DNA from: Promethearchaeota archaeon | Lineage (GTDB): Archaea > Asgardarchaeota > Lokiarchaeia > Sigyniarchaeales > SOKP01 | Reading direction: 5' to 3' | NCBI GenBank assembly: GCA_016839765.1 | Contig: JAEOTP010000068.1 | Location: 27,218-91,217, forward strand | DNA length: 64,000 nucleotides | Part shown: piece by piece, positions 33,748 to 63,977 of the stretch | How the letters are laid out: every line of letters starts with the position of its first letter | How positions within the stretch are numbered: the stretch's first letter is position 1 | Position numbers and translations under genes: made by a program | Notes under the pieces: model-generated | Databases searched by the model: none | What the model was told of the DNA's origin: nothing | The model's input: only the letters and a program-made list of their open reading frames with translations

Positions 33748-34614
33748 TTGCATAAAATATCTGTAAGTGGCTTTAGAACTGTGAAAAGAATTGCGATTAA
33801 ATTAATTATCCTAATGTTTATTACAAGTCTAACGGTTAGTTCCTATTTATTAGTTATAAATGGCTCTGGGGCAGATTTAGAAATCAAACCCCTTTATGGG
33901 CAAGCTCCTGTAATAGATGGAGAAATTGATACATCTGAAAATGAATGGAACAAGGCAATAAAGGAACATCTAAATTTATATCCAAATGAATCCGCCCCAG
34001 AAAATCCATTACTAGTTGATTTATGGGTTATGCAGAATGGCTCAAATTTATATATCTCAATCCAATTTAGTTTTCTTCATAATAGTTTTGAATTTGTGGG
34101 ATTATTAATCTCTAGCAATCAATCTGAAAACCCAGAAGATTTTACAGATGCTAAAATCGTTCGATTTTCAAATATTAGTACCAATGAATATACATATAAA
34201 GATTATTATTTAAATAATTCAATTTATGAGGAGGATACAAATTCAAATGGTAGTGGAGCTGGAAAAATAGAGGGAGAGGATGTTATTTATGAATTTGTCT
34301 TGCCTGTTGAATATAATGAAAGTGATCCTGAAGATGTCTTTTTAGAATACGGAACTGATGAAGAAAGTGGTCATATATTTAAAATTATTATGGGAGATTC
34401 TACAGACCCTCCTTCTTATCCAGAGGATATAAGGATAAGTAATAATGTTTTAATTAAAATTACATACAATCCACTACCTACCGAGTTAACTCAAGAAGAA
34501 CTTTTAATCTTAATTTTTTCCATTATTATTTTTGGTACTAGTGGAATGCTTTACGTATTTTATATCTATAGAATTGTAAAATTGAAGGAAAGAATTGAAA
34601 GAATAAGGACATAA
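33748..34614 (+). CDS. Surface protein: signal peptide, DOMON/CBM9-like domain, C-terminal TM (copy A)
   Basis: APVIDGEID...EW motif; homolog at 63177-63977. Confidence 0.75.
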   Translation: MHKISVSGFRTVKRIAIKLIILMFITSLTVSSYLLVINGSGADLEIKPLYGQAPVIDGEIDTSENEWNKAIKEHLNLYPNESAPENPLLVDLWVMQNGSNLYISIQFSFLHNSFEFVGLLISSNQSENPEDFTDAKIVRFSNISTNEYTYKDYYLNNSIYEEDTNSNGSGAGKIEGEDVIYEFVLPVEYNESDPEDVFLEYGTDEESGHIFKIIMGDSTDPPSYPEDIRISNNVLIKITYNPLPTELTQEELLILIFSIIIFGTSGMLYVFYIYRIVKLKERIERIRT

Positions 34615-34615
34615 T

Positions 34616-35029
34616 ATGCCAAAATTTAAAAAAGAGAAGAAAAGGGATAACCGTTCAAACAAAAAAGCATTTAACGAAGAATTCGCGTATAAGACAGTAA
34701 TTAAGTCAGTTATTTTCGCAGGCTTTTTTTTTACTTTATCAATTCTCTTTAATATGGAGATAATAACATTTTTTGTAAATTTGGGTGAACTTTGGTTTAT
34801 TATTGATATAATTATTAAACTGGTTGCAATTTTACTCTTTTTCTTTTTCATGGTAATAAGTATTGGCAATTATAAAGAATTAACAGGAAGACCGTTAGAT
34901 TTTAAGCTAATTCTTTTAATGTTTGTATTATCTCTCCTTCAAGCATTTCGAGACCCTATAGTTTTTACGTTTACCTTTTTTGGACTTGCTATTATAATTA
35001 TTTATATGTTCTTTGTCCAAGAAAGTTAA
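34616..35029 (+). CDS. Small 4-TM protein (copy A)
   Basis: AFNE.FAY and SIGNYKE shared with 62759-63175. Confidence 0.85.
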   Translation: MPKFKKEKKRDNRSNKKAFNEEFAYKTVIKSVIFAGFFFTLSILFNMEIITFFVNLGELWFIIDIIIKLVAILLFFFFMVISIGNYKELTGRPLDFKLILLMFVLSLLQAFRDPIVFTFTFFGLAIIIIYMFFVQES

Positions 35030-35063
35030 ATTTGAAATCGAAATCTCATTATTGATTATAATA

Positions 35064-35807
35064 ATGAAGTCAAATTTTTTATTTGTGGGACACAGAGGAA
35101 CGAGATTTCAGTTTGATGAAAACACTATAGAAGCATTTGAGATCGCATTAATCCATGGAGCAAATTATATTGAGTTTGATATTCGTGAATTAAAAGATGG
35201 AAATTTAATCATTATTCATGATTCTTCGTTAGAGAGAACAACAAACGGTTTTGGTTTAATTAAAGATTATAATTATTCAGAGATAAGTAATCTAAATACA
35301 AGAAATAGAAATTGTAAAATACCTCTTTTACATGAGGTTTTGGAAAATTTTAGGAGTAAAACTAATTTTATAATCGAATTAAAAGAAGTAGATTCATGGC
35401 AGGAAGTTATAGATATTGTAATTAAAAAACAATTACTACTTAACACAATTTTTAGTGGAAGAAATTTAGTTATGTTAAAACGTTTGAAGACAAAGGCACC
35501 AGAAGCTCAAGTTTGTTATAATATTACTAAGGGACAAGGATTTACTTTGAAAAATTTTCTTGAAAATCGGGGCATGGATAAATTAACTTTTATTCCAGAC
35601 ATAATTAGTCTTAGATCTAACTTAATTGAAAAAAAATTTATTAAAAAATGTCATAAGCATAATTTATTAGCATTAGCTTGGGATTTCATTAATTACAAAA
35701 ATCCCATCGAAAAAATCAAATATTTAATCGATTTAGGAATTGATGGTATATTATTTGATGATTATCGCAATATTGGATTTATAAAAGATTATTTATTGAC
35801 CAGTTAA
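35064..35807 (+). CDS. Glycerophosphodiester phosphodiesterase (copy A)
   Basis: GHRG, ENT, IEFDI, HD, IELK, GIDGILFD; start set by alignment with copy B. Confidence 0.92.
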   Translation: MKSNFLFVGHRGTRFQFDENTIEAFEIALIHGANYIEFDIRELKDGNLIIIHDSSLERTTNGFGLIKDYNYSEISNLNTRNRNCKIPLLHEVLENFRSKTNFIIELKEVDSWQEVIDIVIKKQLLLNTIFSGRNLVMLKRLKTKAPEAQVCYNITKGQGFTLKNFLENRGMDKLTFIPDIISLRSNLIEKKFIKKCHKHNLLALAWDFINYKNPIEKIKYLIDLGIDGILFDDYRNIGFIKDYLLTS

Positions 35808-37867
35808 TTGTTTTTTATGATAGATTTCCCTGATGGAAGAATCAATACTATCTCGTCTAAAGTTAATAATTTTATCCATTTCCTTAATTTCTTTTCAGAT
35901 GTTTTTAAAAAATAAGATATTATTTCTTTTGCTAATGCTCCTTTTTGGAGTCCTGTATTAGAAGGTTTTATAATTAAAAAATTACTATCTTCAGATTCGA
36001 TTGCCCTTATTGGTCCAACCTTTATTTTCGGATAAAATTGATGATTTTCATCATTTGAAGTATCATGTAATTCAATTAATTCTAAACTAATAGCTAACTC
36101 TGTCTCAGCGTCTTTTATAAGGTTTTTTTTTCCTGAAATCATAAAAGAGCCTTTAGGTAGAAATTCACCTGAAGGAGGGGTTTTTGAAACTTGATTTGGC
36201 AACACAAAGAACACATCAACAACACCCCAATTTTCTTTCCATGCTCGAGAATAACTAGCAACGAATATTGCAGCCTCTTTTATTGTATTTTGGGGAATAT
36301 CTTTACCTTCCGGATTTTTTATGACTGTTAATGGGGAACCTGGAAAGTTTGTATGAAAAACTAAATCATTATCATCAACATATTTCTTATATATTAATTC
36401 ATTTGAATTAGCATCTCTCCCTCCAATAACAAGAAATTCTTCCGATGAAAAGAACCATCTAAATTTTTCAAACCACTTCTTCTTTGGTTTCTTAATTAAA
36501 ACATCTACTTTTTCTTCGATTGCATCTCTTTTATCAAGTAATTGTTGTATAGTTTTTTTAGTTTTTTCAATTGCAGGGATGGTGCCTTTTATTTTTTTTT
36601 CAAACTTTTTTCCTTTAGTATAGAGCCTATTGGCATTCTCTCCTAGACTATAATTTAAATTTAAATATACTTCATTATCTTTTATGTTAATTATTACTTG
36701 TTTTGTTGATGGTATAATTTTAATGAAGAATTGTAAACCTTCAATATTATCATTCTTGGCATTTAATAATTTTTCATTAATTTCTTCAATTGAATAGCCT
36801 CTGCTTCTTGCATTTGAGATTGTATCAAACAGTTTTTCTAATGTATTGAAATTAGTATATATAAAATCTCCATAATCATAGAATTTTTTCTTTTGAACTT
36901 TTAACTCGTTTAGATACTCCTTTTGTCTTTTTAAAATTTGTTCCTGAACATTTATTTGGTGATCAAGATTATCATTTTGGGAAGATTTAACTAGATCTGA
37001 ATCAATTTGAGAATAATAATAATCAACTGCTTCATTGAAAGACTCAAAATATCTTTTATTTTGATTTTGGTATAAAATAAGATCAAAAGGCTGAACTGAT
37101 ATTTGATTTTCATTCTCATCAAGTATAATATTTGCGTTAATTTTACCGAAAAGTAATTGATTTCTTAAATTTTTGAAAGCATCGAATAGATTTTTCAAGT
37201 TATCAATACCTAAACTATTACCTTTTTCAGTTTTTTCGATTCCTGCTTCATAGCAAAGTTCTTCACTATGTAGACCTGAGATATTTATATTTCTTGCTAA
37301 AATTCTGACTATTTCCTGATCTGAATCAATGATCAAGTCATTAAATTCTTCTCGGTTTAAAGTTAAAAAATCCTTTCCCCTTGGTTTAGGAAAACTATAT
37401 TCTCTATTAGCTAAAATATCACGGTCTTTAAATCTTTTATACTTATTAGCAATTTTTACAACATCCTTATCGTCAACCAATATATAATTGCCTTTATTGA
37501 ATAGTTCGACAATAAATTTCCATGGTTCCTCATCATAATTACTTAAATTAAAAATGATAATCCTATCGAAATTATGTTGAGATATAGACAAAATTTTTCT
37601 GTTTTTCATGAATTTTCTTAAAGACATTACATATTGAGAAGGATATTTTGGGATAGGATAATTATAATTTGTTAAATTGATTCGAGAGTCATTTTTTATA
37701 ATTAAATTTTTCTTCTCATTTTTCTTTGTTTTAAGTTTTAATATCAAGAGATCTTCAATTTCATATATATTTAAGATGATCCCTTGAGAAAGTATTGAGT
37801 CTAATTCTCTAACAATTATATATACATCAAAATTTGAAAATTTTAATATTCTTCTCATAAATACCAT
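35804..37867 (-). CDS. rqcH: RqcH/NEMF (NFACT) ribosome quality-control factor (copy A)
   Basis: FDRII, WFEKFRWF, GGRDA, SKTPPSGEFLPKGSFMISG. Confidence 0.95.
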   Translation of the reverse strand: MVFMRRILKFSNFDVYIIVRELDSILSQGIILNIYEIEDLLILKLKTKKNEKKNLIIKNDSRINLTNYNYPIPKYPSQYVMSLRKFMKNRKILSISQHNFDRIIIFNLSNYDEEPWKFIVELFNKGNYILVDDKDVVKIANKYKRFKDRDILANREYSFPKPRGKDFLTLNREEFNDLIIDSDQEIVRILARNINISGLHSEELCYEAGIEKTEKGNSLGIDNLKNLFDAFKNLRNQLLFGKINANIILDENENQISVQPFDLILYQNQNKRYFESFNEAVDYYYSQIDSDLVKSSQNDNLDHQINVQEQILKRQKEYLNELKVQKKKFYDYGDFIYTNFNTLEKLFDTISNARSRGYSIEEINEKLLNAKNDNIEGLQFFIKIIPSTKQVIINIKDNEVYLNLNYSLGENANRLYTKGKKFEKKIKGTIPAIEKTKKTIQQLLDKRDAIEEKVDVLIKKPKKKWFEKFRWFFSSEEFLVIGGRDANSNELIYKKYVDDNDLVFHTNFPGSPLTVIKNPEGKDIPQNTIKEAAIFVASYSRAWKENWGVVDVFFVLPNQVSKTPPSGEFLPKGSFMISGKKNLIKDAETELAISLELIELHDTSNDENHQFYPKIKVGPIRAIESEDSNFLIIKPSNTGLQKGALAKEIISYFLKTSEKKLRKWIKLLTLDEIVLILPSGKSIIKNN

Positions 37868-37944
37868 TATCGTTTGAATAAAATCTGAACTTTACTACAA
37901 TATATATAATGATTTTTATAATAAATAATATTAATAATACTATT

Positions 37945-38361
37945 ATGGTTAAAAAAGATAAACGCCAGAAGCGAACCAATATAAAGAAAGAACGTCAGAA
38001 GCGTATTAAAGAAAAAAAGAAACAACTACAAAAACAAGATTTATTATCAGATAAAAAAACTTCAAAGGGAATAGATCTCCGTTTAGAAAAAGAAACAAAA
38101 ATTTACTGGATTAGAGCAATAACAGGTGCCGCTAGCGCTTTAATTGGAATTTTAATAGGTTTAAAAGGATGGTGGATATTTCTCTGGATGATGTGCTTTT
38201 GGTGGATTACTCCATTTTTTGTAAGTTTTATAATATTAAGATATGAATATGATAAAGAGGAATGGAATTGGAAAAATATTATTAAGCCCGGAGTAGGAAT
38301 ATATTTCTTCCTTTTTATGATTATCTCAACTATTACATTCACATTAATTAGATATTTCTGA
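37945..38361 (+). CDS. EMC6-like 3-TM protein (copy A)
   Basis: YWIRAITGAASALIGILIGLKG and G.GIYFFLF pattern like EMC6; basic N-terminus. Confidence 0.6.
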   Translation: MVKKDKRQKRTNIKKERQKRIKEKKKQLQKQDLLSDKKTSKGIDLRLEKETKIYWIRAITGAASALIGILIGLKGWWIFLWMMCFWWITPFFVSFIILRYEYDKEEWNWKNIIKPGVGIYFFLFMIISTITFTLIRYF

Positions 38362-38364
38362 AAT

Positions 38365-38871
38365 TTATAATGAAATTGCTTGTTTTACTTTTTTCTCAAT
38401 TTTTTCTTTTGAAGTAAAAATAATTTCTTCTAATTTATAATTGCGATTACAATATATACATTGAATTTTCAATGGCTTTTCTTCTAAAACTAAGAATTCT
38501 GTGTCGATTGGCTCTTTTTCTGAATTTGAAATACATGTTTTGTTTTGGCAGAGTATTAATCTTTCAATAATTTGTGGTATTTTTACTTTTTTCTTTTCTA
38601 TCACTTTATAATTATCGATAAGAGAAATTGTTGCATTAGGTGAGAGAATCGAAATTTGTTGCATTTGTATTTCGTTCAGAAAAACTCCTTCAATCTTAAT
38701 TATATCTTTTTTATTATACTTTTTAGACGATACATTCACCCCGATAGTCATAAGATTTGGTGATTCATCAAGACCCGTTAGATTCAGAATTGTTAATGCA
38801 TAACCCGCATCGATATGGTCAATTACAGTACCTTTTTTTATTTTATCTATCTTTAATTTTTCTTCAGACAT
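38365..38871 (-). CDS. pyrI: Aspartate carbamoyltransferase regulatory chain (copy A)
   Basis: GTVIDHI, KDIIKIE; Zn cysteines C.N..CIS and CIYC. Confidence 0.97.
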   Translation of the reverse strand: MSEEKLKIDKIKKGTVIDHIDAGYALTILNLTGLDESPNLMTIGVNVSSKKYNKKDIIKIEGVFLNEIQMQQISILSPNATISLIDNYKVIEKKKVKIPQIIERLILCQNKTCISNSEKEPIDTEFLVLEEKPLKIQCIYCNRNYKLEEIIFTSKEKIEKKVKQAISL

Positions 38872-38936
38872 TTTCTTGTAATTTAAATAATCTAATTGAA
38901 AAAACTTTTGGCATAAATCAAGAATTTTATTATTAT

Positions 38937-40016
38937 TTAGATAATAATGAATGAGATAAAAAATAACACGGTTGATATAATAGAATTGTAAGTAAGATTA
39001 TCATCAATTTCTAAGTCTAAAAAATCTAACAATCCAATTAATAATGCACCAATCGAAGGTAATAAGAATATACTTAATAAATTTAATATTGATAATCCAT
39101 TTAAGAGTAATAAAACAATTATCCCAGAAAAGAAAGCAACAACTATTCCAGCAATTAATCCTGCATAAGTTTTATTTGTATTTCGAATTTTTTTATGACC
39201 AAATGTTCTCCCAAATAGATTAGCAGTCATATCACCAAAAATTGCCATTGTCATAGAAGTGCAGATTATTAAAGGGCCGATAGGTTGGATCACTCCATAA
39301 ATTATGATGATCGAAAAACACCCAATTCCCATAGAAATATGGGGGCCAAATCTCATGTGGCGTTCTTTCTCTCTTAGAATTCTATTAACAGGTTTTAAAG
39401 GATATACCTCTGGTTTCAATATCCTTATGAATTCTGCTGTGAAAAATCCAATTAAAGAAATTCCAACTAAGCATACTACTAAATATTGTGTAAAAATCAT
39501 ATTGGGTATATTATTATAAATTGAAAAAAATAATTCAGAGAAAAATGGCGGTAATAACTTGAATAAATAAACAAATAAATTCTGAACGAGGAATCCCAAT
39601 GTAAAATAGAAAAAGATAATTCCTAGTACTATTAAGTGGGATAATTTTCTGTAAATCTCATATTTTAATGGCAATTCTTTGGGAGTTAATAAATCATTTT
39701 TTCTTGTATTAGGTTTTCCTAGGCTAACTTTTTTCTTTTCCCTATGAATTAAAAGATAAAAAAAGGGTAAAAATAACAAAATGAAACCCAGTATAAGAAT
39801 ATCAAAAGGATATATAATCAAATCTATACTAGTTATATGAAGTAGATTAATTATTACTAAATTAATTGAGATGCTTATTAGGAAAACCAATGAATTAATC
39901 AGATTATTAAGGAATGCTCCCTTTTCACCCTTCTTTTTAGTAAGATAGGTAATATAGAATAAAATTAAGCCATATAGAGAAAAAATTCCTACTATAATGT
40001 ATGATAGCAAATCCAA
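38937..40016 (-). CDS. CTP-dependent polyprenol/diacylglycerol kinase family (SEC59/DGK1/phytol kinase) (copy A)
   Basis: RKLSHL, FGD..A..FG..FG, KTYAG, DDNL. Confidence 0.85.
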   Translation of the reverse strand: MDLLSYIIVGIFSLYGLILFYITYLTKKKGEKGAFLNNLINSLVFLISISINLVIINLLHITSIDLIIYPFDILILGFILLFLPFFYLLIHREKKKVSLGKPNTRKNDLLTPKELPLKYEIYRKLSHLIVLGIIFFYFTLGFLVQNLFVYLFKLLPPFFSELFFSIYNNIPNMIFTQYLVVCLVGISLIGFFTAEFIRILKPEVYPLKPVNRILREKERHMRFGPHISMGIGCFSIIIIYGVIQPIGPLIICTSMTMAIFGDMTANLFGRTFGHKKIRNTNKTYAGLIAGIVVAFFSGIIVLLLLNGLSILNLLSIFLLPSIGALLIGLLDFLDLEIDDNLTYNSIISTVLFFISFIII

Positions 40017-40115
40017 AGATTACAATTCTCGTGAGATTTTAATAATGTTAATGATCTTTATAATTTTAAGATTTACTGTAAAATTATTATCAAGAAAGAA
40101 AGAAAAAAAAATAAT

Positions 40116-41516
40116 TTAAAATTGATTTTCATCGATTATTGGCATATCTGGAGAAGCTAATGCTTTCTTAATATCTTCTTTTGGTAATTCATAATCTTCT
40201 AACTTACCGCTCATGAATTCTTTGTATGCTAATAAATCAAAAAATCCATGACCACTGAAATTGAATACGATTACCTTTTTCTCATTATTCTCTTTTGCTT
40301 TTAAGGCTTGATTTATTGCTTCTTTTACCGCATGAGCAGTTTCTGGTGCGGGTAAGATTCCTTCTGTTTGAGCGAATTTAAGACCTGCTTCAATAATTTC
40401 TGTTTGGTGAAGCATTGAAGTTGAAATGATATTGTTGTTAGATAAAATTGAAATAATAGGCGCCATTCCATGATATCTTAATCCTCCCGCATGTATTGGA
40501 CTAGGAATAAATGTATGCCCCAGAGTATACATTTTTAATATTGGTGCTTTTTTTGCAGTATCTCCAAAATCCCATCTATATTCTCCTTTGCAAACGCTTG
40601 GGCAAGCTCTTGGTTCTACCCCTATTATTTCTAAATCTGGACATTTCCCCTGTAATTTATCTTTTACGAATGGAATTGCAAATCCTCCAAAATTCGAACC
40701 ACCACCCATACAACCTATGAGAATATCTGGCTCTAATCCGATTTTTTTTAGTTGTACTTTAGTCTCTTGGCCGATTATAGTTTGATGTAAAAGTACAAAA
40801 TTTACCACACTTCCTAGTGAATAGCGTATTTTATCACTCCTTAGACTATGTTCAACTGCTTCAGATATTGCAATGCCTAAGCTTCCAGGATGATCTGGAT
40901 TAATGTCATAAAATGTTCTTCCGGCATCGGTATGTTTTGAGGGACTTGCATGAATTGCTGCATTATATGCTCTCATTAATATCTTTCTACCAGGCTTTTG
41001 GATAAAGCTCGCTCTTACCATGTAAACAGTACATTTTAATCCATATATATTACATCCATAAGAGAGCGCTGAACCCCATTGTCCTGCTCCGGTTTCAGTG
41101 ACAAGCTCCTCAATTCCTTGTATTCCCGCATAATAAGCTTGAGCTAGAGCCGTATTAGGCTTATGGGATCCTGTAGGAGAAACTGATTCATTTTTAAAGA
41201 AGATTTTTATTCTACCATCATTTATACCAAGCATTTTTTCTAAACGGACTGCTCTGTGAAGAGGTGTTGGACGATATGTTGTAGCATAGATTTCTCTTAG
41301 CTCCTTTGGGATACTAATCGTATTATCTTGAGATACCTCTTGTAACACGCATTCTTTAGGAAAGATCGCAAAAGCTAATTCTGGAGGTGCCGGTTTTCCG
41401 TCCATAGGATTAATTAAAGGCGTTATAGGTGATGGTAAATCTGGAAGAATGTTTATCCATTCTTTAGGAACTTCGTTTGGATCTAATAAAACTCTTGCAT
41501 TAAAATTTTCTAACAT
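40116..41516 (-). CDS. trpB2: TrpB2 PLP enzyme (copy A)
   Basis: PTGSHKPN, TETGAGQWG, GGGSN, HAGGLRYHG, SGHG. Confidence 0.97.
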   Translation of the reverse strand: MLENFNARVLLDPNEVPKEWINILPDLPSPITPLINPMDGKPAPPELAFAIFPKECVLQEVSQDNTISIPKELREIYATTYRPTPLHRAVRLEKMLGINDGRIKIFFKNESVSPTGSHKPNTALAQAYYAGIQGIEELVTETGAGQWGSALSYGCNIYGLKCTVYMVRASFIQKPGRKILMRAYNAAIHASPSKHTDAGRTFYDINPDHPGSLGIAISEAVEHSLRSDKIRYSLGSVVNFVLLHQTIIGQETKVQLKKIGLEPDILIGCMGGGSNFGGFAIPFVKDKLQGKCPDLEIIGVEPRACPSVCKGEYRWDFGDTAKKAPILKMYTLGHTFIPSPIHAGGLRYHGMAPIISILSNNNIISTSMLHQTEIIEAGLKFAQTEGILPAPETAHAVKEAINQALKAKENNEKKVIVFNFSGHGFFDLLAYKEFMSGKLEDYELPKEDIKKALASPDMPIIDENQF

Positions 41517-41559
41517 TTAAATCACCGTTTTACATTTTTAGTTAAAAATGCTACATCTT

Positions 41560-41587
41560 TATATTGGAATTCAATATAATTGACGCA
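41560..41587 (-). promoter_or_regulatory. Conserved 28-nt element in the trpB2 leader (copy A)
   Basis: TGCGTCAATTATATTGAATTCCAATATA; 23/28 identical to 56252-56279. Confidence 0.6.
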
Positions 41588-41673
41588 TAATTGGCAAAAC
41601 AATTAAGATAATACAAAGAGAGGGAAATTATGTGATAGAAAGAAAAATTTGATTTAATCCAATGAAGGCGTAA

Positions 41674-41727
41674 CTAAAAACGCCAAGGCCACTGCCAACG
41701 CCAAAAAGTATTTTTTTCAGTAGCCAT
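41674..41727 (-). CDS. Trp-rich leader peptide MATEKNTFWRWQWPWRF (alternative ATG at 41739)
   Basis: Hand translation; 4 TGG codons; stop 157 nt upstream of trpB2; conserved in copy B. Confidence 0.85.
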   Translation of the reverse strand: MATEKNTFWRWQWPWRF

Positions 41728-41831
41728 TGATAAAATCATTGTTGTTTTGTTATTAACAAAATAACAAAACTTATAAATTTAACTTTTTTTACCAAAAATA
41801 ATTTTTTTTACCAAAAATATCAAAAATCAAT

Positions 41832-42236
41832 TTATCTTCCTTCAAAGATTTTTGCTAAATTTTTTGCTGCAACTCTCATTACTTTAACGGTTTTCATTAA
41901 TGTGTCGATGAGTGTTCCAGCACATACAATTACTAATGGGCCTGCATTACTTACAACTATGTAGCCATTTTGGGCTCTTACAATTATTTCACTTAATTCT
42001 TCTTGAAACAGTGTCTGAATTGTTGAGCTACCAGTCATTAGTAGAGCACTTGCGAGCCCACAAAATTGATCGCCATCAACATGATATTGGGGAAGCGCAG
42101 AAAATGCAATTTGATACCCCTCCTGAGAAACAAGTGCAATTGCTTCAATGTCAGCATTAGAAGTTATAAATGTAATTTGAGGACTTATTTTTTCAATATC
42201 CTCATCAGTAATTCCAAGATCACTTCCGAACTGAAT
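41832..42236 (-). CDS. Roadblock/LC7 domain protein (copy A), probable ATT start
   Basis: IALVS.EGY.IA and EIIVRA.NGYIVV.NAG roadblock pattern; AGGTG SD 6 nt before the ATT. Confidence 0.9.
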   Translation of the reverse strand: MQFGSDLGITDEDIEKISPQITFITSNADIEAIALVSQEGYQIAFSALPQYHVDGDQFCGLASALLMTGSSTIQTLFQEELSEIIVRAQNGYIVVSNAGPLVIVCAGTLIDTLMKTVKVMRVAAKNLAKIFEGR

Positions 42237-42331
42237 CCAAATCACCTTTCTTGGGATAAATGAAAATAGAACCTTTATCTTAGTAATTTTTTAAAATTCT
42301 TTTTATTTATATATTTTCATTAAAATTCAAT

Positions 42332-42601: not shown

Positions 42602-42675
42602 AACTTAAATAATTTTTTATAGATTTTAAATTTGGTTAAATAAATAGTTCTCTATTAAATACTTTGTATCTTACT

Positions 42676-47378: not shown

Positions 47379-47527
47379 AATTAGAAAATAAAAAAAAATA
47401 ATTTTGCAAAGATACTAGTTAAAAAATTTAAATAATTTATAGTTGAATTAGTATTAAAATTTAAGCTGATCATAAGAAGATTTACATATTAAATAGTCAT
47501 TTATTTATTACAACCTTTTAGCCTACT

Positions 47528-54733: not shown

Positions 54734-55405
54734 TTGTCGGAGATCCTTCTTAATCAACTCATAGAGAAATTGGACGAGGTACTCTTAGGAAGAAGAGATA
54801 TTATATCTGAGATTGAAAAACTAAAGGATGCAATAGAAAAGATTCAGAGTGAGAAAAAAGACAATACAGGAATTCAAATCACGAATACTGTAAATGAAAT
54901 AAAAGTTTTTATGTCAAAGTCCACCAATGTTTTATCTGAACTTAATAATAATATGAGAAATTTACAAAATTTAATAATTTCCCTCAATAATGTTTTTGAT
55001 ACAATTTTAAGTACAATAAATATCCCCGAATCGTTTACGGCTAGTGAAATTTCAACAAAACCTCAAAAAATTGGAACTTCAACTAGATATGAAAACAATT
55101 TATCTGCTCCTATAAGATCTCCAAGTGAATCAATATCACCAAGTGCTCCTGAAAAATCATTAGATATTTTAGGAGATTCAGACTTTAAGTTAATTATTTC
55201 TATAGCTAAATCCAATAATCCGGCAGTTGAAATAGCGATAATGCTTGAAAAAATAAGAGCAAAATTAGAAAACGAGAATCCCTTAAACCCTATCTTGTTT
55301 GAATTAAGCATGGAATCAAGGCGACTAAAATCTTTAGGAAATATACCACTTGACGCATATAATCTGCAAATTCTAATAGAGAAATTACAAAAATGGATTG
55401 GATAG
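54734..55405 (+). CDS. Coiled-coil protein with S/P-rich linker, right arm only
   Basis: 223-aa ORF with heptad N-terminal half. Confidence 0.7.
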   Translation: MSEILLNQLIEKLDEVLLGRRDIISEIEKLKDAIEKIQSEKKDNTGIQITNTVNEIKVFMSKSTNVLSELNNNMRNLQNLIISLNNVFDTILSTINIPESFTASEISTKPQKIGTSTRYENNLSAPIRSPSESISPSAPEKSLDILGDSDFKLIISIAKSNNPAVEIAIMLEKIRAKLENENPLNPILFELSMESRRLKSLGNIPLDAYNLQILIEKLQKWIG

Positions 55406-55537
55406 CAATTGAAAATTATGGAATTTTATTTGAATTAAATTTTATCTTAACGAAAATAAATAAATAAATGGATTTTAATTAATTTAATATAAGTATAATC
55501 TAAAATTTTATATAAATTATCTAAAAGGTGTAGGCTT

Positions 55538-55942
55538 ATACAATTTGGATCTGATTTAGGTATTAACCATGAAGATATAGAAAAAATAAGTCCGCAAATC
55601 ACATTTATAACATCTAATGCAGATATAGAAGCAATTGCACTTGTAAGCGTAGAGGGTTATCAAATAGCTTTCTCTGCTTTGCCCCAGTACCAAGTAGATG
55701 GTGATCAATTTTGTGGACTTGCTAGTGCTTTATTAATGACTGGAAGATCAACAATTCAAACATTATTTCAAGAAGATATAACTGAAATAATTGTAAGGGC
55801 TGAGAATGGATATATAGTTGTTACAAATGCAGGACGCTTAGTTATTGTATGTGCTGGGACAATTATTGATACTCTAATGAAAACGGTGAAAGTTATGCGA
55901 ATAGCAGCAAAGAATCTCTATAAAATTTTCGAAGGACGCTAA
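55538..55942 (+). CDS. Roadblock/LC7 domain protein (copy B), ATA start
   Basis: IQFGSDLG...; 120/134 identical to copy A; no ATG/GTG/TTG in frame between TAA 55496 and the conserved N-terminus. Confidence 0.88.
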   Translation: MQFGSDLGINHEDIEKISPQITFITSNADIEAIALVSVEGYQIAFSALPQYQVDGDQFCGLASALLMTGRSTIQTLFQEDITEIIVRAENGYIVVTNAGRLVIVCAGTIIDTLMKTVKVMRIAAKNLYKIFEGR

Positions 55943-56112
55943 ATTATAAATTTTTCTTATTTTAAATCTTCACAGTTCTGTGTATTTAGTTGGGCATGAA
56001 AGTATTTTATTGTCTTAATTTTATAGAAAGTACTTTTTAGATCAATTAACTTTTTATTTAATAATAAATAGTTAAATCAATAATTTTTATTATGATAATA
56101 TGGTTTAATTTT

Positions 56113-56163
56113 ATGGCAACTGGAAATTATTATTTTTGGCAGTGGCCTTGGTCTTGGTTGTAA
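56113..56163 (+). CDS. Trp-rich leader peptide MATGNYYFWQWPWSWL (alternative ATG at 56092)
   Basis: Hand translation; 4 TGG codons; stop 148 nt upstream of trpB2. Confidence 0.85.
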   Translation: MATGNYYFWQWPWSWL

Positions 56164-56251
56164 GACCCATTATATTGCCTTAAACCATACCTTACTTTCT
56201 CTCTTTTCTTAATTTTCGTTTTTCTAAATTATCGAATACTCTATTTAAATG

Positions 56252-56279
56252 TGCATTAATTATTTTGATTTCCAATTTA
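56252..56279 (+). promoter_or_regulatory. Conserved 28-nt element in the trpB2 leader (copy B)
   Basis: TGCATTAATTATTTTGATTTCCAATTTA matches copy A. Confidence 0.6.
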
Positions 56280-56311
56280 GTAATGAGACACAAAAAATAA
56301 GTTGATAAAAA

Positions 56312-57727
56312 ATGATAGTAAAGAAGGTAAAGTATTATAATTCAAGAATTATATTACAACCAAATGAAATACCAAAGCAATGGGTAAATATTTTACCAGA
56401 TTTACCCTCTCCCATGACGCCCTTAGTAAATCCTATGGATGGCAAACCCGCGCCACCAGAACTAGCATTAGCGATATTTCCAAAAGAATGCGTTATGCAA
56501 GAAATATCTCAAGAACCAACAATTCCTATCCCTAAGGATTTAAGGGAAATTTTCGCAAGAACTTATAGACCAAGTCCTCTACATCGCGCATTAGGATTAG
56601 AGAAAGAATTGGGAATAGAAGGTGATAATATAAAGATATTTTATAAAAATGAATCTGTTTCACCTACAGGTTCCCATAAACCAAATACAGCAATAACTCA
56701 AGCTTATTATGCAAAAAAGGATGGACTTGAAGAATTGGTCACGGAAACAGGAGCAGGACAATGGGGTTCAGGACTTTCTTATGGATGTAATTTGTTTGGA
56801 ATAAAATGTACTGTATATATGGTAAGAGTGAGTTTTTTACAAAAACCGGGAAGAAAAATTTTAATGAAGGCTTTTAATGCAGAAGTTCATCCAAGTCCTT
56901 CGAGATATACAGAATCAGGCAAAAAATTCTTAGAAAAAGATCCAGAACACCCCGGTAGTTTAGGAATAGCCATCTCTGAAGCATTAGAACATAGCTTAAG
57001 GAGTGATAAAATTAGATACTCTCTTGGAAGTGTTGTAAATTTTGTTCTTTTACATCAGACAATTGTAGGACAAGAAACTAAAATCCAACTAGCAAAAGTT
57101 GGTGTTGATAAACCTGATATAATAATAGGTTGTATGGGAGGTGGTTCTAACTTTGCTGGCTTTATGATCCCTTTTGCAAGAGATAAAATACATGGAGTTC
57201 TTCCAGATGTAGAAATTATTGGAGTTGAGCCACGAGCTTGTCCTAGTGTTTGTAAAGGTAAATATGGATGGGATTTTGGAGATACTTCTATGAAGGGTCC
57301 TATTATAAAAATGCATACTTTAGGTCATACATTTGTTCCAAGTCCTATTCATGCAGGGGGATTAAGATATCATGGGATGGCACCTATAGTTTCAATCTTA
57401 TATAATAATAGAGTTATATCTGCGTCTATGCATCATCAAACTGAAGTCATTAAATCCGGTCTTTTATTTGCAAGGGCTGAAGGAATACTTCCTGCCCCTG
57501 AAACAGCACATGCCGTAAAAGAAGCAATAGATCAAGCATTAAAAGCCAAAGACAATAAGGAAAAGAAAACAATCGTCTTTAACTTTAGTGGTCATGGCTT
57601 TTTTGATTTATTAGCTTATAAATTGTATATGACCGGTGATTTGGAAGATTATGAATTACCGACTGAAAAAATCCAAAAAGCATTATCATCAGAAGAAATG
57701 CCAAAAATTGATGAATCTCAATTTTAA
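56312..57727 (+). CDS. trpB2: TrpB2 PLP enzyme (copy B)
   Basis: Same motifs as copy A. Confidence 0.97.
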   Translation: MIVKKVKYYNSRIILQPNEIPKQWVNILPDLPSPMTPLVNPMDGKPAPPELALAIFPKECVMQEISQEPTIPIPKDLREIFARTYRPSPLHRALGLEKELGIEGDNIKIFYKNESVSPTGSHKPNTAITQAYYAKKDGLEELVTETGAGQWGSGLSYGCNLFGIKCTVYMVRVSFLQKPGRKILMKAFNAEVHPSPSRYTESGKKFLEKDPEHPGSLGIAISEALEHSLRSDKIRYSLGSVVNFVLLHQTIVGQETKIQLAKVGVDKPDIIIGCMGGGSNFAGFMIPFARDKIHGVLPDVEIIGVEPRACPSVCKGKYGWDFGDTSMKGPIIKMHTLGHTFVPSPIHAGGLRYHGMAPIVSILYNNRVISASMHHQTEVIKSGLLFARAEGILPAPETAHAVKEAIDQALKAKDNKEKKTIVFNFSGHGFFDLLAYKLYMTGDLEDYELPTEKIQKALSSEEMPKIDESQF

Positions 57728-57837
57728 ATAATAATTTTAAATAATTTTTTTTCCTAAATAATCTAATTTTACTTTTAAAGAAAATCTTAAAAATGAAAGA
57801 ATCCTTAAAATATTCAAATTTAAGAGATTGGTAATTT

Positions 57838-58833
57838 TTGAATGTCCTTTCCATAATAATTTTAAGCTTTTTCTATTTATACAGCCTAATTCTATTATAT
57901 ATAGCCTTTTTAGCAAAAAGCAAGGGAGAACGAGGAGCATTTATTAATAATTTGGTAAATGCTTTAGTTTTAATTATATCACTTACTATAAATTTGGGAA
58001 TTCATTTTTTTTTAAAAACTCCTTATAATGAATTTATTGTTTTTCCCTTTGATCTGTTGATGATAAGCTTTATTGGAATATTCTTTCCAATATTTTCGCT
58101 ATTTATTTTGCGAGAGAAAAAAAAAATTAAAAACCGGAAAGAGATAGATACCAAACACTTTAAACAATTACCTTTAAAATATGATATTTACAGAAAGTTA
58201 ACCCATTTAGTTGTTTTAGGAATAATTTTTTCGTATTTTACACTTGGGTTTAATATAAATGGAGATAAAATGTTTTTTTCTCAAAATTTAGTTATTTTCT
58301 TGGTAGGAATCTCTTTAATTGGATTATTAACAGCTGAATTTATTAGAATATTAAACCCTGAAATTTACCCTCTTAAACAGGTTAATCAAATATTACGAGA
58401 AAAGGAGTTGCATATGAGATTTGGGCCTCATATTTCTATGAGTATTGGATGTTTTTCAATAATTCTTTTATTTGGGTTAATTCAACCAATAGGTCCAGTA
58501 GTAATCTGCACCACTATGACAATGGCAATTTTTGGAGATATAGCATCAAATTTAATTGGTAGAATAATAGGAAAAACTATAATTCGCAATACAGATAAAA
58601 CGTATGAAGGTTTATTCGCGGGGATGGTAATATCATTTTCTTCGGGTATTATAATACTAATATTGTTGAGGAGCTTTTATGATCCAAGCATTTTAGGTTT
58701 TTTTTTAATTCCAATATTAGGTGCATTGATTATTGGGGGAATTGACTACTTAGATTTAGAAATTGATGATAATTTAACCTTTAATTTTATTTTATCAACA
58801 ATTTTATTTTTTATTTCATTTTTTGTTTTATAA
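57838..58833 (+). CDS. CTP-dependent polyprenol/DAG kinase family (copy B)
   Basis: RKLTHL, FGD, KTYEG, DDNL. Confidence 0.85.
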   Translation: MNVLSIIILSFFYLYSLILLYIAFLAKSKGERGAFINNLVNALVLIISLTINLGIHFFLKTPYNEFIVFPFDLLMISFIGIFFPIFSLFILREKKKIKNRKEIDTKHFKQLPLKYDIYRKLTHLVVLGIIFSYFTLGFNINGDKMFFSQNLVIFLVGISLIGLLTAEFIRILNPEIYPLKQVNQILREKELHMRFGPHISMSIGCFSIILLFGLIQPIGPVVICTTMTMAIFGDIASNLIGRIIGKTIIRNTDKTYEGLFAGMVISFSSGIIILILLRSFYDPSILGFFLIPILGALIIGGIDYLDLEIDDNLTFNFILSTILFFISFFVL

Positions 58834-58891
58834 GAGAAATTTAAGTTAATAAGAATTTACCATAAGTTTTTCAATAAGAATATTTTAATTA

Positions 58892-59401
58892 ATGAAAATG
58901 TTAGAAGAAAAATTAAAAATTGACAAAATCTCTAAAGGAACGGTAATTGATCATATTGATGCTGGTTATGCTCTAACCATACTTAATCTTACTGGATTAG
59001 ATGAATCTAAGAATTTAATGACTATAGGTGTTAATGTTTCTTCTAAAAAATACCAAACAAAAGATATTATTAAAATTGAAAATGTATTTCTAAACGAAAC
59101 TCAAATGCAACAAATTTCAATTCTCTCACCCAATGCAACTATTTCATTAATAGAAAATTATAAGGTAATTGAGAAGAAAAAAGTTAAAATTCCAAAAACA
59201 ATTAAAAAATTGATTATGTGTGTTAATCAAACATGTATTTCCAATTCAGGTGAGCCAATTGATACAGAATTTTACGTTTTAGAAGAAAAACCTTTAAAAA
59301 TTCAGTGTATATATTGTGAGCGAATATACAAACTCGAAGAAATTGTATTTACTTCTAAAGAAAAGAAAGAAAAGCAGGTAAAGCAAAGGATTCAATTGTA
59401 A
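58892..59401 (+). CDS. pyrI: Aspartate carbamoyltransferase regulatory chain (copy B)
   Basis: About 85% identical to copy A by hand count. Confidence 0.97.
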   Translation: MKMLEEKLKIDKISKGTVIDHIDAGYALTILNLTGLDESKNLMTIGVNVSSKKYQTKDIIKIENVFLNETQMQQISILSPNATISLIENYKVIEKKKVKIPKTIKKLIMCVNQTCISNSGEPIDTEFYVLEEKPLKIQCIYCERIYKLEEIVFTSKEKKEKQVKQRIQL

Positions 59402-59418
59402 TAAATCCTTAAATCCAC

Positions 59419-59859
59419 CTATAAAAATAATTCAAGGATTGATGAAAAATCAGGAATAAACTTAAGTGTTGTATGAATAACTACCCCAACTATCATAAAT
59501 AAAAAGAAAAATATGCCTATTCCAGGCATTAAAATATTTTTCCAAGTCCATTCTTCCTTATCGTATTTAAATTTTAATATAATGAAGCTAACAATAAAAG
59601 GAAATAAAAGCCACCAAAATAGCATCCAAAAAAATAAAAACCATCCTATGAATCCAAATAATAATCTTCCTATTAATGCACTTAAAGCACCTGTTGCTGC
59701 TCTTATCCAATATAATTTTGTTTCCTTTTCAAGTCGAAGATCAAAAGGTTTTGTAGTTGTTTTCTTTGGAATAACATCTTGTTTAGGTAATTCTTTCCTC
59801 TTCTCTTTTATTAATTTCTTCCTTCTCTTTCTAATATCGACTTTTTTATGTTTAGCCAT
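59419..59859 (-). CDS. EMC6-like 3-TM protein (copy B)
   Basis: DLRLEKETKLYWIRA; start set by alignment with copy A. Confidence 0.6.
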   Translation of the reverse strand: MAKHKKVDIRKRRKKLIKEKRKELPKQDVIPKKTTTKPFDLRLEKETKLYWIRAATGALSALIGRLLFGFIGWFLFFWMLFWWLLFPFIVSFIILKFKYDKEEWTWKNILMPGIGIFFFLFMIVGVVIHTTLKFIPDFSSILELFL

Positions 59860-59929
59860 GTTATTAATATAAATAATTATTATTATAAAAATCATTATAT
59901 ATAATGATAAACAAAAGTACAGACAGAAA

Positions 59930-61993
59930 ATGATTAGAACCGTAAAGAAATTTTCCAATTTTGATGTATATGCTATTGTTAAAGAATTAGATTTAATTTT
60001 ATCAAATAGTTCGATTTCTAATGTTTATGAAGTTGAAGAATTATTGGTACTAAAAATAAATACCTCACAAGGGAAAAAAAATTTAATTGTTAAAGAAGAT
60101 TCTCGGATTAATTTAACTGAATATGATTATCCAGTTCCTAAATATCCAAGTCAATATATTATGTCTTTAAGAAAATTCTTAAAAAATAAACGAATTCTAA
60201 GAGTTTCTCAATACAATTTTGATAGGATAGTAATTATTGAGTTAAGCAATGGCGAAGCAGAACCTTGGAAGTTTATTATTGAACTGTTTAATAAAGGTAA
60301 TTTTTTGTTGTTAAATGAGAATAATATTGTTAAAATTGCTAAAAAATATAAAAGATTTAAGGATCGTAATGTTTTAGCTAACAAAGAATATATTTTTCCA
60401 AAATCACGAGGGATTGATTTTTTAAATATAAATAAAGATAATTTTAAAGAATTATTGAAATTAGATACAGACGTGGAAGTAGTAAGATATTTAGCAAGAA
60501 ATGTAAACATTGCCGGTTTTTATAGCGAAGAAATATGTTATAGAGCAGAAGTAGATAAAAAATTAGTTGGTGCGGATTTGTCTGAGGATGATGTAGAAAA
60601 ATTATATAACTCTTTTAAAAAATTAAGAAATGAATTACTCTTTGGGAAGATCGACGGTAAAATTATTTATGATAATAATGGTAATGAGATTTTTGTTCTT
60701 CCTTTCGAATTAAAATTGTTTAAAGATTATAAACAAAAAAAATTCGAATCTTTTAACAATGCCGTCGATGAATTTTTCTCAAAATTAGATTCAGAAAAAT
60801 TAATCATTCCCAAAGATCAAAAAATTTTAGACCAAATCAAATCTCAAAAAAAAATCTTAAAGAATCAACAAGAATATCTAGAAGAACTTAAAATTAAAAA
60901 GAAAAAATATTATACGTACGGAGATTACATTTATTCTAATTTTAGTACGTTAGATAAGTTATTTGCAATAATCCTAAATGCAAAAATAAAAAGATATGAT
61001 TGGGAAAAAATTAATGATGAGTTACAAAAAGCTAAAATGAAGAGTTTAGAAGATATCGATATTTTCGAGAAGTTAATACCCTCAACTAAGCAAGTGCTCA
61101 TTAAAATTAATAGTGATGAAGTTTATTTAGATTTAAAAAAAAGCATTGGTGAAAATGCTAATTTAATTTACTCTAAAGGAAAAAAAGCTGATAAAAAGAT
61201 AAAAGGTACTATAATAGCTATTGAAAAAACTAAAGCAAGTATTGAAAACTTAAAACTTGAGAAAGAATCTATGGAAGCTGAAGTTGATTTCTTAATAAAA
61301 AAACCAAAAAAGAAATGGTATGAAAAATTCAGATGGTTCTTCTCATCAGATGGATTTCTAGTAATTGGAGGAAGAGATGCCTCATCCAATGAAATTCTAT
61401 TTAAGAAATATATGGATTCAAATGATCTAATATTTCATACAAATTTTCCTGGATCTCCATTAACTGTTATTAAAAATCCTGAAAATAAGGAAATTCCTGA
61501 AATAACTATTAATGAAGCAGCGAACTTTGTAGCAAGCTATTCACGTGCATGGAAAGAAAATTGGGGTATGGCTGATGTTTTCTATGTGAACCCATCACAA
61601 GTTTCAAAAAGTCCACCTTCAGGTGAATTTTTAGCAAAAGGTTCTTTTATTATTTCAGGTAAAAAGAAATTTATTAAGAACGCAAAAACAGAGCTAGCAA
61701 TTGGATTAAATATTATAGACATCAGTCCTAATATAGAAGATAAGGGTGGAATTCTTTATCCTAAATTGATCTGCGGACCTCTATCAGCAATTCATATACA
61801 AACAAATTATTATGCATTAATAATACCATCAAAATCAGAAGGCTTAACCAAAGGAAAATTAGCTCAAAAAATAAAATCCTACTTTATTAACCATGTTGAT
61901 AACAAACTAAAAAAATGGATAAAATTATTGACAGTTGATGAAATATTACTTTGTTTACCAAGTGGACTCTCAACAATTAAATCAAGATCTTAA
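59930..61993 (+). CDS. rqcH: RqcH/NEMF (NFACT) (copy B)
   Basis: Same motifs; 687 aa like copy A. Confidence 0.95.
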   Translation: MIRTVKKFSNFDVYAIVKELDLILSNSSISNVYEVEELLVLKINTSQGKKNLIVKEDSRINLTEYDYPVPKYPSQYIMSLRKFLKNKRILRVSQYNFDRIVIIELSNGEAEPWKFIIELFNKGNFLLLNENNIVKIAKKYKRFKDRNVLANKEYIFPKSRGIDFLNINKDNFKELLKLDTDVEVVRYLARNVNIAGFYSEEICYRAEVDKKLVGADLSEDDVEKLYNSFKKLRNELLFGKIDGKIIYDNNGNEIFVLPFELKLFKDYKQKKFESFNNAVDEFFSKLDSEKLIIPKDQKILDQIKSQKKILKNQQEYLEELKIKKKKYYTYGDYIYSNFSTLDKLFAIILNAKIKRYDWEKINDELQKAKMKSLEDIDIFEKLIPSTKQVLIKINSDEVYLDLKKSIGENANLIYSKGKKADKKIKGTIIAIEKTKASIENLKLEKESMEAEVDFLIKKPKKKWYEKFRWFFSSDGFLVIGGRDASSNEILFKKYMDSNDLIFHTNFPGSPLTVIKNPENKEIPEITINEAANFVASYSRAWKENWGMADVFYVNPSQVSKSPPSGEFLAKGSFIISGKKKFIKNAKTELAIGLNIIDISPNIEDKGGILYPKLICGPLSAIHIQTNYYALIIPSKSEGLTKGKLAQKIKSYFINHVDNKLKKWIKLLTVDEILLCLPSGLSTIKSRS

Positions 61994-62734
61994 TTTTGAT
62001 TTAATCCACTGTTTTATTTTAGGAATGTTTTTGTAGTTATCAAATAAAATGCCATCAATCCCTATATTAATCAAGGATTTAATGAGTTTTATAGGATTTT
62101 CACTTACAATAAAATCCCAGGATAATGGTAAAATTTCATTCTTATGACAGATATCAATAAACTTAGATGAAACCAGGCTTGATCTTAAACTAATTATATC
62201 TGGCTTGAAAATTAACTTTTTTTGTGCGCCTTGCTTTAAGAAATCATCTAACTTGAACTCTTGTGCTTTAGTAATATTATAACATATTCTACATTTGGGT
62301 AATTTAGCTTTCATTAGTTTTAAGATATGAATATCCCGCCCACTGATAATTGATTCTTCTATTAAATCATTTTCTTTAATTGTTTTTGTTATTTCATCAT
62401 GTAAATGTTCTTCTTTTAATTCAATCATGAATTGTATTCTTCTTTTTAGCAGTTTTAAAACTTCAGACAATAATGGAATTTGTTCTTGACATTTTTTTGT
62501 TTTTATAGTCTTAAGTTCATCATAGTTATGGTTATCTAATCGTCCTGTTCCATATGTCATTCTATCTAACGTGGAATCATGCATAATAATTAATTGTCCA
62601 TCTTTTGTTTTCCGCACATCCAATTCAATATAATTTGCACCGTATTCTATTGCTTTCTCAAAGGCATTTATTGTATTTTCATCAAAATCGGTTCTTGTTC
62701 CTCTATGCCCGATATATAAGAATTCAGATTTCAT
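61982..62734 (-). CDS. Glycerophosphodiester phosphodiesterase (copy B)
   Basis: GHRG, ENT, IELDV, HD, IELK. Confidence 0.92.
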   Translation of the reverse strand: MKSEFLYIGHRGTRTDFDENTINAFEKAIEYGANYIELDVRKTKDGQLIIMHDSTLDRMTYGTGRLDNHNYDELKTIKTKKCQEQIPLLSEVLKLLKRRIQFMIELKEEHLHDEITKTIKENDLIEESIISGRDIHILKLMKAKLPKCRICYNITKAQEFKLDDFLKQGAQKKLIFKPDIISLRSSLVSSKFIDICHKNEILPLSWDFIVSENPIKLIKSLINIGIDGILFDNYKNIPKIKQWIKSKLRS

Positions 62735-62758
62735 TATTTTAAGAATATCTTAAATCTT

Positions 62759-63175
62759 TTAAATCTCTTGGATTAAATACAAATAAATTAAGATTATTAT
62801 AATTCCTAAAACAGTAAATGTAAAAACCCAGAGATTTAGAATAGACTGGCCCAAAGATAAAACTATGAGAAATAGAAATTCTTTCCAACTTATAGGTTTC
62901 CCAACAATTTCTTTATAATTTCCTATACTAACCATCATAAAGAAGAAAAATAATAAAATAACACTAGTTTTAATCAATAAATCTATTATGTCAAATAATA
63001 CATTTTTATCCATAAAAACAGTAATGATCTCAATATTAAAGAAAATAGATATAATTAAAAATATACCTCCAAAAATAACAGAAATAATTACGGATCTATA
63101 GGCAAATTTCTCGTTAAAAGCTTGTTTGGCTTTAAAATTTGTCTTTTTATTTGGGGATTTAGAAATTTTTGACAT
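62759..63175 (-). CDS. Small 4-TM protein (copy B)
   Basis: Homolog of 34616-35029. Confidence 0.85.
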   Translation of the reverse strand: MSKISKSPNKKTNFKAKQAFNEKFAYRSVIISVIFGGIFLIISIFFNIEIITVFMDKNVLFDIIDLLIKTSVILLFFFFMMVSIGNYKEIVGKPISWKEFLFLIVLSLGQSILNLWVFTFTVLGIIIILIYLYLIQEI

Positions 63176-63176
63176 T

Positions 63177-63977
63177 TTATCGGCGATACCTTTCCATAAT
63201 TTCCTTTAGTTTTATAATTCTATAAATATAAAATCCATATAATACTACAGCAAGACTGAAAATTACTATAGTAAAAACAAAAATTGTTAGTTTTAAAAGA
63301 GGTAATTCACTTTCGGGAGGGTGGTTTATATTAATTAAAAAAATACTGCTTTTCATAATTCCTTGAGGATAACTGGGAGTAAGTCCATATGTTATATTAA
63401 AAGCGAAAGGTTCACCATATTCCAAATAAACATCTTCATCAATATCTCCTTGAAGATTATTTATTGGAATAGAAAATTCATAAGTAGAAGTTTCACCTTC
63501 CAATTTTGCAGCTCCATTGCCATTTGATGCAGAATCTGGAATAAAAACACTGTTATTTATAAAATAATCAAAATAGTCGAACTCATCTTCAGTTATATTA
63601 GAAAATTGAACAATTTTCGCATCTATAAAATCTTTTATATCTTCAGAAGAACTATTTGAAATTAAAATCCCTACAAATTCACTCGTTCTATTTACCACTA
63701 TAGATTCCAATTCAATTTTAACTGCAATATATAGATTTGAACTGCTTTGCATTACCCATAAATTAATTGGTAAATCAGTTAAGTTTGTCTGAATTTTATA
63801 TGCTTCATCCCATTCGTTGGCAAATGAATCAATCTGCCCATCAATAGTAGGAGTTTTGCCAAAGTTAGGATCGATTTCTTCCAAAGCACCATGACAAGGT
63901 ATTGTGAAAAGTACTGAAATGAAAAATATGTTAATAATAAACATAGATAATAAAATTTTAAGAATTAGTTTCCTCAA
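63177..63977 (-). CDS. DOMON/CBM9-like surface protein (copy B)
   Basis: TPTIDGQID..NEW, DFIDAKIV, FYIYRI.KLKE. Confidence 0.75.
   Translation of the reverse strand: MRKLILKILLSMFIINIFFISVLFTIPCHGALEEIDPNFGKTPTIDGQIDSFANEWDEAYKIQTNLTDLPINLWVMQSSSNLYIAVKIELESIVVNRTSEFVGILISNSSSEDIKDFIDAKIVQFSNITEDEFDYFDYFINNSVFIPDSASNGNGAAKLEGETSTYEFSIPINNLQGDIDEDVYLEYGEPFAFNITYGLTPSYPQGIMKSSIFLININHPPESELPLLKLTIFVFTIVIFSLAVVLYGFYIYRIIKLKEIMERYRR

Follow-up and report, generated by a model that had tools for sequence, protein, structure and literature searches.

A mirrored 30-kb gene block around a tRNA-Arg(TCT) gene in a Promethearchaeota contig as a probable chimera of two lineages

A 30-kb block at the end of a contig from a Promethearchaeota archaeon appears to carry the same genes twice, as diverged copies in mirror order around a tRNA gene, which raises the question of whether any single genome holds this arrangement. 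We analyzed a window of 64,000 nucleotides (nt) from this contig (GenBank assembly GCA_016839765.1, contig JAEOTP010000068.1, positions 27,218 to 91,217), which we label G000:C50:27218-91217 and whose base 64000 is the end of the 91-kb contig. G000 is the metagenome-assembled genome (MAG) under study and its species' genome in GTDB 232. We refer to its own lineage, with G046 as the nearest genome, as lineage A, and to a second congeneric lineage, with the MAG 9R3_44 (G058) as its nearest, as lineage B. C50 is very probably an inter-genome chimera, in which these two Promethearchaeota (Lokiarchaeia-type) lineages are joined head-to-head at the tRNA-Arg(TCT) gene. A first-pass annotation of the window had preferred a chimera of two Lokiarchaeia at this tRNA, and the identification of two parents, a 50-nt exact repeat, a mismatched hybrid tRNA, and the phylogenetic trees described below all bear it out.

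The mirror and the nearest genome of each arm

The inverted similarity around the tRNA proved to be real. We found 15 long inverted DNA matches of 70 to 82% identity between 35.0-42.2 kb and 55.5-62.7 kb, far above chance, and an all-against-all protein comparison gave 13 reciprocal pairs between the arms with 43 to 86% amino acid (aa) identity. Every paired gene is an open frame, as the first-pass annotation had stated for all copies, but of the 14 pairs that it had counted only 13 were found. The mirror is imperfect because three pairs, encoding the 89-aa, 799/735-aa, and 768-aa proteins (42332-47378 versus 49604-54530), lie on the same strand in both arms. Of the two identities that had been counted by hand, that of PyrI (~85%) was reproduced, whereas that of the roadblock protein (90%) was measured at 86%. 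A single tRNA-Arg(TCT) gene lies between the two nuclease genes, i.e., between the arms. The mirror does extend to position 63977, as described earlier, but this is not its natural limit: the last gene of the right arm ends 23 bp short of the contig end, and it is only the end of the contig, at window base 64000, that cuts the arm off there.

The two arms were found to have different nearest genomes. On the left, window positions 35389-48572 are 97.9% identical in nucleotide sequence to G046:C118, positions 32789-48572 are 93.7% identical to G054:C117, and the left-arm proteins are 93 to 100% identical to those of G046. On the right, positions 48500-64000 are collinear over 15,520 nt, at 94.8% nucleotide identity, with a contig of G058 (C80; JAHLWP010000037.1, 42 kb, 273x), and the right arm is 96% identical to an independent JGI contig, Ga0114921_10018097 (L077). 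Neither of these lineage-B contigs is related to the window to the left of 48500, and both are collinear with it between the tRNA and base 64000; the A-side and B-side alignments share only the tRNA-Arg(TCT) gene. This placement agrees with the earlier proposal that the arms look like orthologs from two species or genera, each having a separate, near-identical, non-mirrored counterpart in a different genome. The expectation that the mirror would go on past 64 kb also holds in the donor lineage's own contig: in G058:C80, the genes that come after the DOMON-like gene are orthologous to those of the window at 33153, 32709, 32267, and 31612 (the 31612-33602 genes), and further parts of the window follow them in reverse.

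Lineage B was reached through an exact-cluster look-up, a scan of JGI metagenome contigs, and a scan for the diagnostic tRNA insert described below. The right-arm proteins fall into clusters of at least 90% identity with 21 to 29 members from NCBI, JGI, ENA, and Logan, on contigs of up to 144 kb. We conclude that lineage B exists as an organism of its own and is widespread. Among the 41 congeners used for the copy-number and right-arm DNA searches, no donor of the right arm was found, the best RqcH matches being 63 to 64% identical in amino acids, the best DNA match having ~70% identity, and no DNA match exceeding ~77%.

With either RqcH copy as the query, 37 of the 41 congeners gave a match, with one copy each, and the locus is present once in G058. 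The left RqcH is closest to those of G046 (97%), G019 (93%), G054 (91%), G022 (88%), G020 (73%), and G018 (71%). In an IQ-TREE phylogeny (quick search), the right RqcH fell within a clade that had 100% support and consisted of the lineage-B proteins of other assemblies, as the sister of the JGI protein P0036 (99.4% identity, terminal branch 0.004), and in a FastTree phylogeny, the right nuclease was nested in the B-cluster clade with a terminal branch of 0.01. In the TrpB2 and 768-aa trees, which were built without B-cluster rows, the right copy fell outside the left clade. The left copy was sister to that of G046 in the RqcH, nuclease, and 768-aa trees; for TrpB2, the two fell together in a clade of four members. 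The per-gene trees suggested by the first-pass annotation thus place the arms in different clades (RqcH, nuclease, and 768-aa) or the right copy outside the left clade (TrpB2). In none of the four trees are the arms sisters, which excludes a duplication within the lineage.

The hybrid tRNA gene and its surroundings in the genus

The arms meet within the tRNA gene, and there are no Ns at the junction. ARAGORN calls only positions 48508-48582 of this gene, and the Rfam tRNA match spans 48515-48572. The gene contains a core without a single difference between A and B, which, at 50 nt, is the longest exact run between them; the breakpoint lies in this shared repeat. In an alignment of 170 nt, G000 has the bases of G046 without exception up to the right end of the core and, from the left end of the core onward, those of L077. 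The bases flanking the core follow the same division, with CG at 48513-48514 as in A (TA in B) and TA at 48565-48566 as in B (GG in A). Both native acceptor stems pair at seven of seven positions, 5' GGACTCG with 3' CGGGTCC in A and 5' GGACCTA with 3' TAGGTCC in B. The G000 tRNA combines the B-type 5' strand GGACCTA with the A-type 3' strand CGGGTCC, so that A7 and C66 are mismatched and U6 and G67 form a wobble pair. The tRNA core occurs only once in G000, and the hybrid is the sole tRNA-Arg(UCU) gene of the MAG.

The 5' (D-arm) part of the gene carries a 30-nt insert. We considered whether it was an assembly scar and rejected this, as the insert is native to lineage B, being found in the independent contigs L077 and G058:C80; it also occurs in the terminal part of G019:C317. 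In the folded B pre-tRNA the insert makes a separate hairpin, and it is probably a non-canonical intron. The insert of lineage B is GCTAG-rich (in L077, it lies in the tRNA region 1635-1740). A different insert of ~30 nt, located after gccctat, was observed in the tRNA-Arg(TCT) genes of nine congeners (G044, G052, G053, G002, G008, G047, G004, G011, and G056), in which the sequence also leaves the tRNA just past the T-loop and the genes are not called by ARAGORN. The inserts of this tRNA across the genus are possibly non-canonical introns or signs of split tRNAs.

The layouts of both parents can be read directly from a locus that is conserved across the genus. The common order in 40 genus loci is u1-u4, DOMON-like, 4TM, GDPD, RqcH(-), 150-aa, PyrI(-), CTP-transferase-like(-), TrpB2(-), roadblock(-), 768(+), 799(+), 89-aa(+), nuclease(-), tRNA-Arg(TCT), and Z, where Z is our name for the conserved neighbor beyond the tRNA. 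The left arm has in common with G046, G054, G022, and G019 a derived inversion of the 768/799/89-aa block (window 42332-47378), and the right arm, when followed backwards, shows the standard order, the orientation of this block included. A minus-strand nuclease gene is combined with a plus-strand tRNA in 13 congeners (G005, G042, G017, G009, G050, G043, G003, G041, G001, G057, G016, G045, and G006) and with a minus-strand tRNA in G018 and in the group formed by the left arm of G000, G046, G054, G022, and G019. When flipped, the right arm with its tRNA matches the layout of the 13 congeners. The nuclease gene and Z hold their position and orientation, indicating that only the small tRNA gene has flipped between lineages. 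This flip within the genus is a very small inversion, one tRNA gene wide.

Z follows the tRNA in G046, G054, G022, G018, G020 (C30), and G019 (C313), with 70 to 94% nucleotide identity among them. In L077 and G058:C80, a Z ortholog with 51 to 65% amino acid identity to the Z of congeners lies on the other side of the tRNA, and in G058:C80 a tRNA-Ile lies beyond it. The native continuations of A (tRNA-Z) and of B (Z-tRNA-nuclease) therefore both exist elsewhere, and they differ from C50. No counterpart of Z was found anywhere in the G000 bin.

In other assemblies, too, the graph branches at this tRNA. Contigs C52 and C30 of G020 overlap by exactly 77 nt, which are the tRNA. In G019, contig C317 (JBATUM010000317.1; L074/L124; MEGAHIT, k127) is 94.2% identical to window 42867-48668 and terminates 104 nt into B-type sequence attached to the A-type 3' end of the tRNA, and contig C313 starts inside the core and continues into the native Z. 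Beyond the 104-nt tail, no DNA resembling the right arm was found in G019. The B-type tail is 100% identical between G000 and G019; we did not accept this as proof of one source strain, as L077 is identical there too.

Origin of the join

The join could have arisen during assembly in the following way. Lineages A and B would both have been in the sequenced material, each with the conserved locus. The A path runs through nuclease_A(-), tRNA(-), and Z_A, and the flipped B path through Z_B, tRNA(-), and nuclease_B(+), with 50 identical bases in common. An assembler that entered the shared core from the nuclease side of A may have left it at the 5'-end side of the tRNA. Because A and B have the tRNA gene in opposite orientations, this exit would lead into nuclease_B and backwards along the B locus, producing nuclease_A(-), hybrid tRNA(-), and nuclease_B(+), exactly the order found in C50, which looks like diverged "paralogs" mirrored over 30 kb about a tRNA. 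An objection that a path through the tRNA is unable to give a mirror, which assumed the same tRNA orientation in both lineages, was dropped in view of the 13 congeners with the opposite orientation. Lokiarchaeota lineages that are close relatives have been reported to co-assemble into chimeras (bioRxiv 10.1101/2019.12.17.879148). The layouts of both parents, the breakpoint interval, the hybrid tRNA, and the tree positions of the arms are seen directly in the data, and we think it highly likely that the assembler, and not a cell, made the join.

Several points weigh against this conclusion. The join is read from assembled sequence and not at the level of reads. No further lineage-B contig was detected in the G000 bin, and the presence of B in the sample is suggested by the right arm alone. 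The A-to-B switch at the identical core also occurs at a contig end in the MAG of a second species, G019, and could be read there as a recurrent biological event. Composition fails to separate the arms, with a GC content of 27.4% on the left and 27.0% on the right (GC at third codon positions was compared, too). The tetranucleotide comparison suggested by the first-pass annotation did not tell them apart either, both arms lying at the 85th to 88th percentile of tetranucleotide distance. With both arms at ~27% GC and with similar tetranucleotide profiles, composition-based checks are blind to the join, which also explains why binning left the contig unsplit.

A cell could have made the join if recombination at the 50-nt tRNA core had brought at least 15.5 kb of lineage-B chromosome into that of A, for instance when a circularised fragment integrated in the Campbell manner, leaving the cell merodiploid for 13 genes. 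Such an acquisition would account for the intact right-arm genes and for a hybrid junction in MAG contigs of two species (G000:C50 and G019:C317) that are ~6% diverged on the A side, and G019:C313, beginning inside the core and running into Z, would fit a second junction. If it were true, one cell would carry 13 normally single-copy genes (RqcH, PyrI, TrpB2, and others) in duplicate, the copies being intact, diverged, and in inverted orientation, with a similar event in G019. However, the nearest relative, G046 (97.9% nucleotide identity), has the native tRNA-Z arrangement, and the right arm is undiverged from free-living B, as seen from the 99.4% identity of RqcH to P0036, so that the uptake would have to be recent. 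The sole tRNA-Arg(UCU) of an AT-rich genome would carry a mismatched acceptor stem. By Pfam, there is no integrase or mobile-element gene among the right-arm genes or the left-arm orthologs; the block is plain conserved chromosome in donor order, and no second junction is reached within the contig. In addition, Z is missing from the G000 bin, G019 lacks right-arm-like DNA past its 104-nt tail and would need a parallel event of its own, and graphs break at the same tRNA in other assemblies. We consider acquisition improbable and much less parsimonious than a chimeric assembly.

A post-assembly join of two correct contigs (mis-scaffolding), rather than a de Bruijn graph error, would have an identical outcome, and an overlap-merging step could have used the 50- to 73-nt tRNA overlap. 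The junction has no Ns, and this possibility, which we rate as very improbable, is a variant of the artefact explanation. An ancient inverted duplication in one genome with both copies under purifying selection, an option that the first-pass annotation had kept, would fit the mirror order, the intact frames, and the way in which identity tracks the conservation of each gene. The trees and the contig of the donor refute it. In the trees, the relatives of the left arm are G046, G054, and G019, and those of the right arm are lineage-B sequences of other assemblies; the RqcH-matching congeners (37/41) and the B genome have one copy each; and the right arm is 95% identical in nucleotide sequence to the single-copy locus of another organism, G058, which has no A-type arm. 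The probability left to it is negligible. Of the other duplicated blocks in G000, C43/C59 and C90/C53 were considered as further contamination from B and rejected, being ordinary paralogs common to G046 and G054. Blocks C43/C59 and C90 are regarded as true paralogs because they have counterparts of 87 to 96% identity in both of these genomes; in G058, their counterparts are 75 to 86% identical or missing. The right arm has no counterpart of that kind in G046 or G054.

With the chimeric assembly as the preferred reading, the mirror is almost certainly a feature of no genome and is therefore no evidence on the duplication or dosage of genes in Asgard archaea. The last ~15.5 kb of a 91-kb public MAG contig would then come from another species and create 13 spurious "paralogs," the only tRNA-Arg(UCU) of the MAG would be an artificial hybrid, and the conserved neighbor Z would be missing from it. 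A second public MAG contig, JBATUM010000317.1, would end in 104 nt of this foreign sequence. Such joins could mislead studies of paralogy, copy number, or gene transfer that use Asgard MAGs, and the practical value of the present case is a quality flag on a public MAG. GUNC targets chimeric contigs of this kind (PMC8201837).

Gene content and comparison with known systems

The features of the two arms and of the junction are listed in Table 1, with gene names from Pfam where matched. The DOMON label given by the first-pass annotation was not confirmed, as Pfam showed no DOMON match at an E value of ≤0.01, and we use "DOMON-like" as a name only. The 223-aa gene is native to lineage B, with 92% identity in G058, and belongs to a cluster with 25 members; its match to a phiKZ internal head protein is weak (E = 3e-4) and falls below the Pfam cut-off. 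The 89-aa, 799-aa, and 768-aa proteins match no Pfam family above threshold, and the two large ones are found genus-wide and have no known function. In all congeners examined, pyrI lies in the conserved locus without an adjacent pyrB; pyrB was not searched for elsewhere. In G018 and G020 (L004 and L002), an additional ~5.5 kb separates u4 (the u33153 ortholog) from the DOMON-like gene, and the locus is without TrpB2; in G020, a TrpB2-like match was observed on another contig, C13.

Table 1. Features of the mirrored block and its junction (window coordinates; identity is between the left and right copies)
Feature	Coordinates	Strand	aa identity	Remark
Left arm	33748..48514			DOMON-like, 4TM, GDPD, RqcH(-), 150-aa, PyrI(-), CTP-transferase-like(-), TrpB2(-), roadblock(-), 89-aa(-), 799-aa(-), 768-aa(-), PD-(D/E)XK nuclease(-)
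Right arm	48565..64000			nuclease(+) 48867-49592, 91-aa(-), 735-aa(-), 768-aa(-), 223-aa(+), roadblock(+), TrpB2(+), CTP-transferase-like(+), PyrI(+), 179-aa(-), RqcH(+), GDPD(-), 4TM(-), DOMON-like(-) 63177-63977
Hybrid tRNA-Arg(TCT) gene	48507..48611	-		Base-by-base alignment with G046 (A) and L077/G058 (B)
Shared core, 50 nt	48515..48564			Exactly identical in A and B; A-to-B switch interval
30-nt insert in 5' (D-arm) part of tRNA	48573..48602	-		Boundaries ambiguous by a 6-nt repeat
DOMON-like pair			43%	
4TM pair			53%	
GDPD pair			52%	
RqcH/NFACT pair			59%	
150-aa pair			58%	179-aa on the right
PyrI pair	38365-38871 and 58892-59401		85%	
CTP-transferase-like pair			57%	"Kinase" in the first-pass annotation
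TrpB2 pair			76%	TrpB2-type PALP enzyme
Roadblock pair			86%	
89-aa pair			~50%	91-aa on the right
799/735-aa pair			~59%	
768-aa pair			57%	
PD-(D/E)XK nuclease pair			59%	
223-aa gene	54734-55405	+		Right arm only, between 768-aa and roadblock

Among known systems, the arrangement resembles the inter-genome chimeras formed in metagenome assemblies when close relatives co-occur, as reported for Lokiarchaeota lineages (bioRxiv 10.1101/2019.12.17.879148). It is like them in having two segments with different nearest genomes, a breakpoint within a short exact repeat of both genomes, here the conserved tRNA core, and a composition too similar for binning to split. It differs in that the join does not simply exchange flanks but sets orthologs in an inverted mirror, and the artefact mimics a palindromic duplication because the shared tRNA gene is oppositely oriented in the two lineages.

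A resemblance to the genomic islands and integrative elements found at tRNA genes is also evident, as the border tRNA is a hybrid, the foreign DNA starts inside the tRNA gene, and a partial tRNA beside the old neighbor is seen in G019. Here, however, no integrase or mobile-element gene is present, the "island" is the donor's ordinary chromosomal locus in its native order, and the hybrid tRNA is mismatched and not restored. Palindromic segmental duplications are similar in their mirror gene order around a central spacer, but the arms of C50 are orthologs of two lineages, three of the genes are unmirrored, and no relative has two copies.

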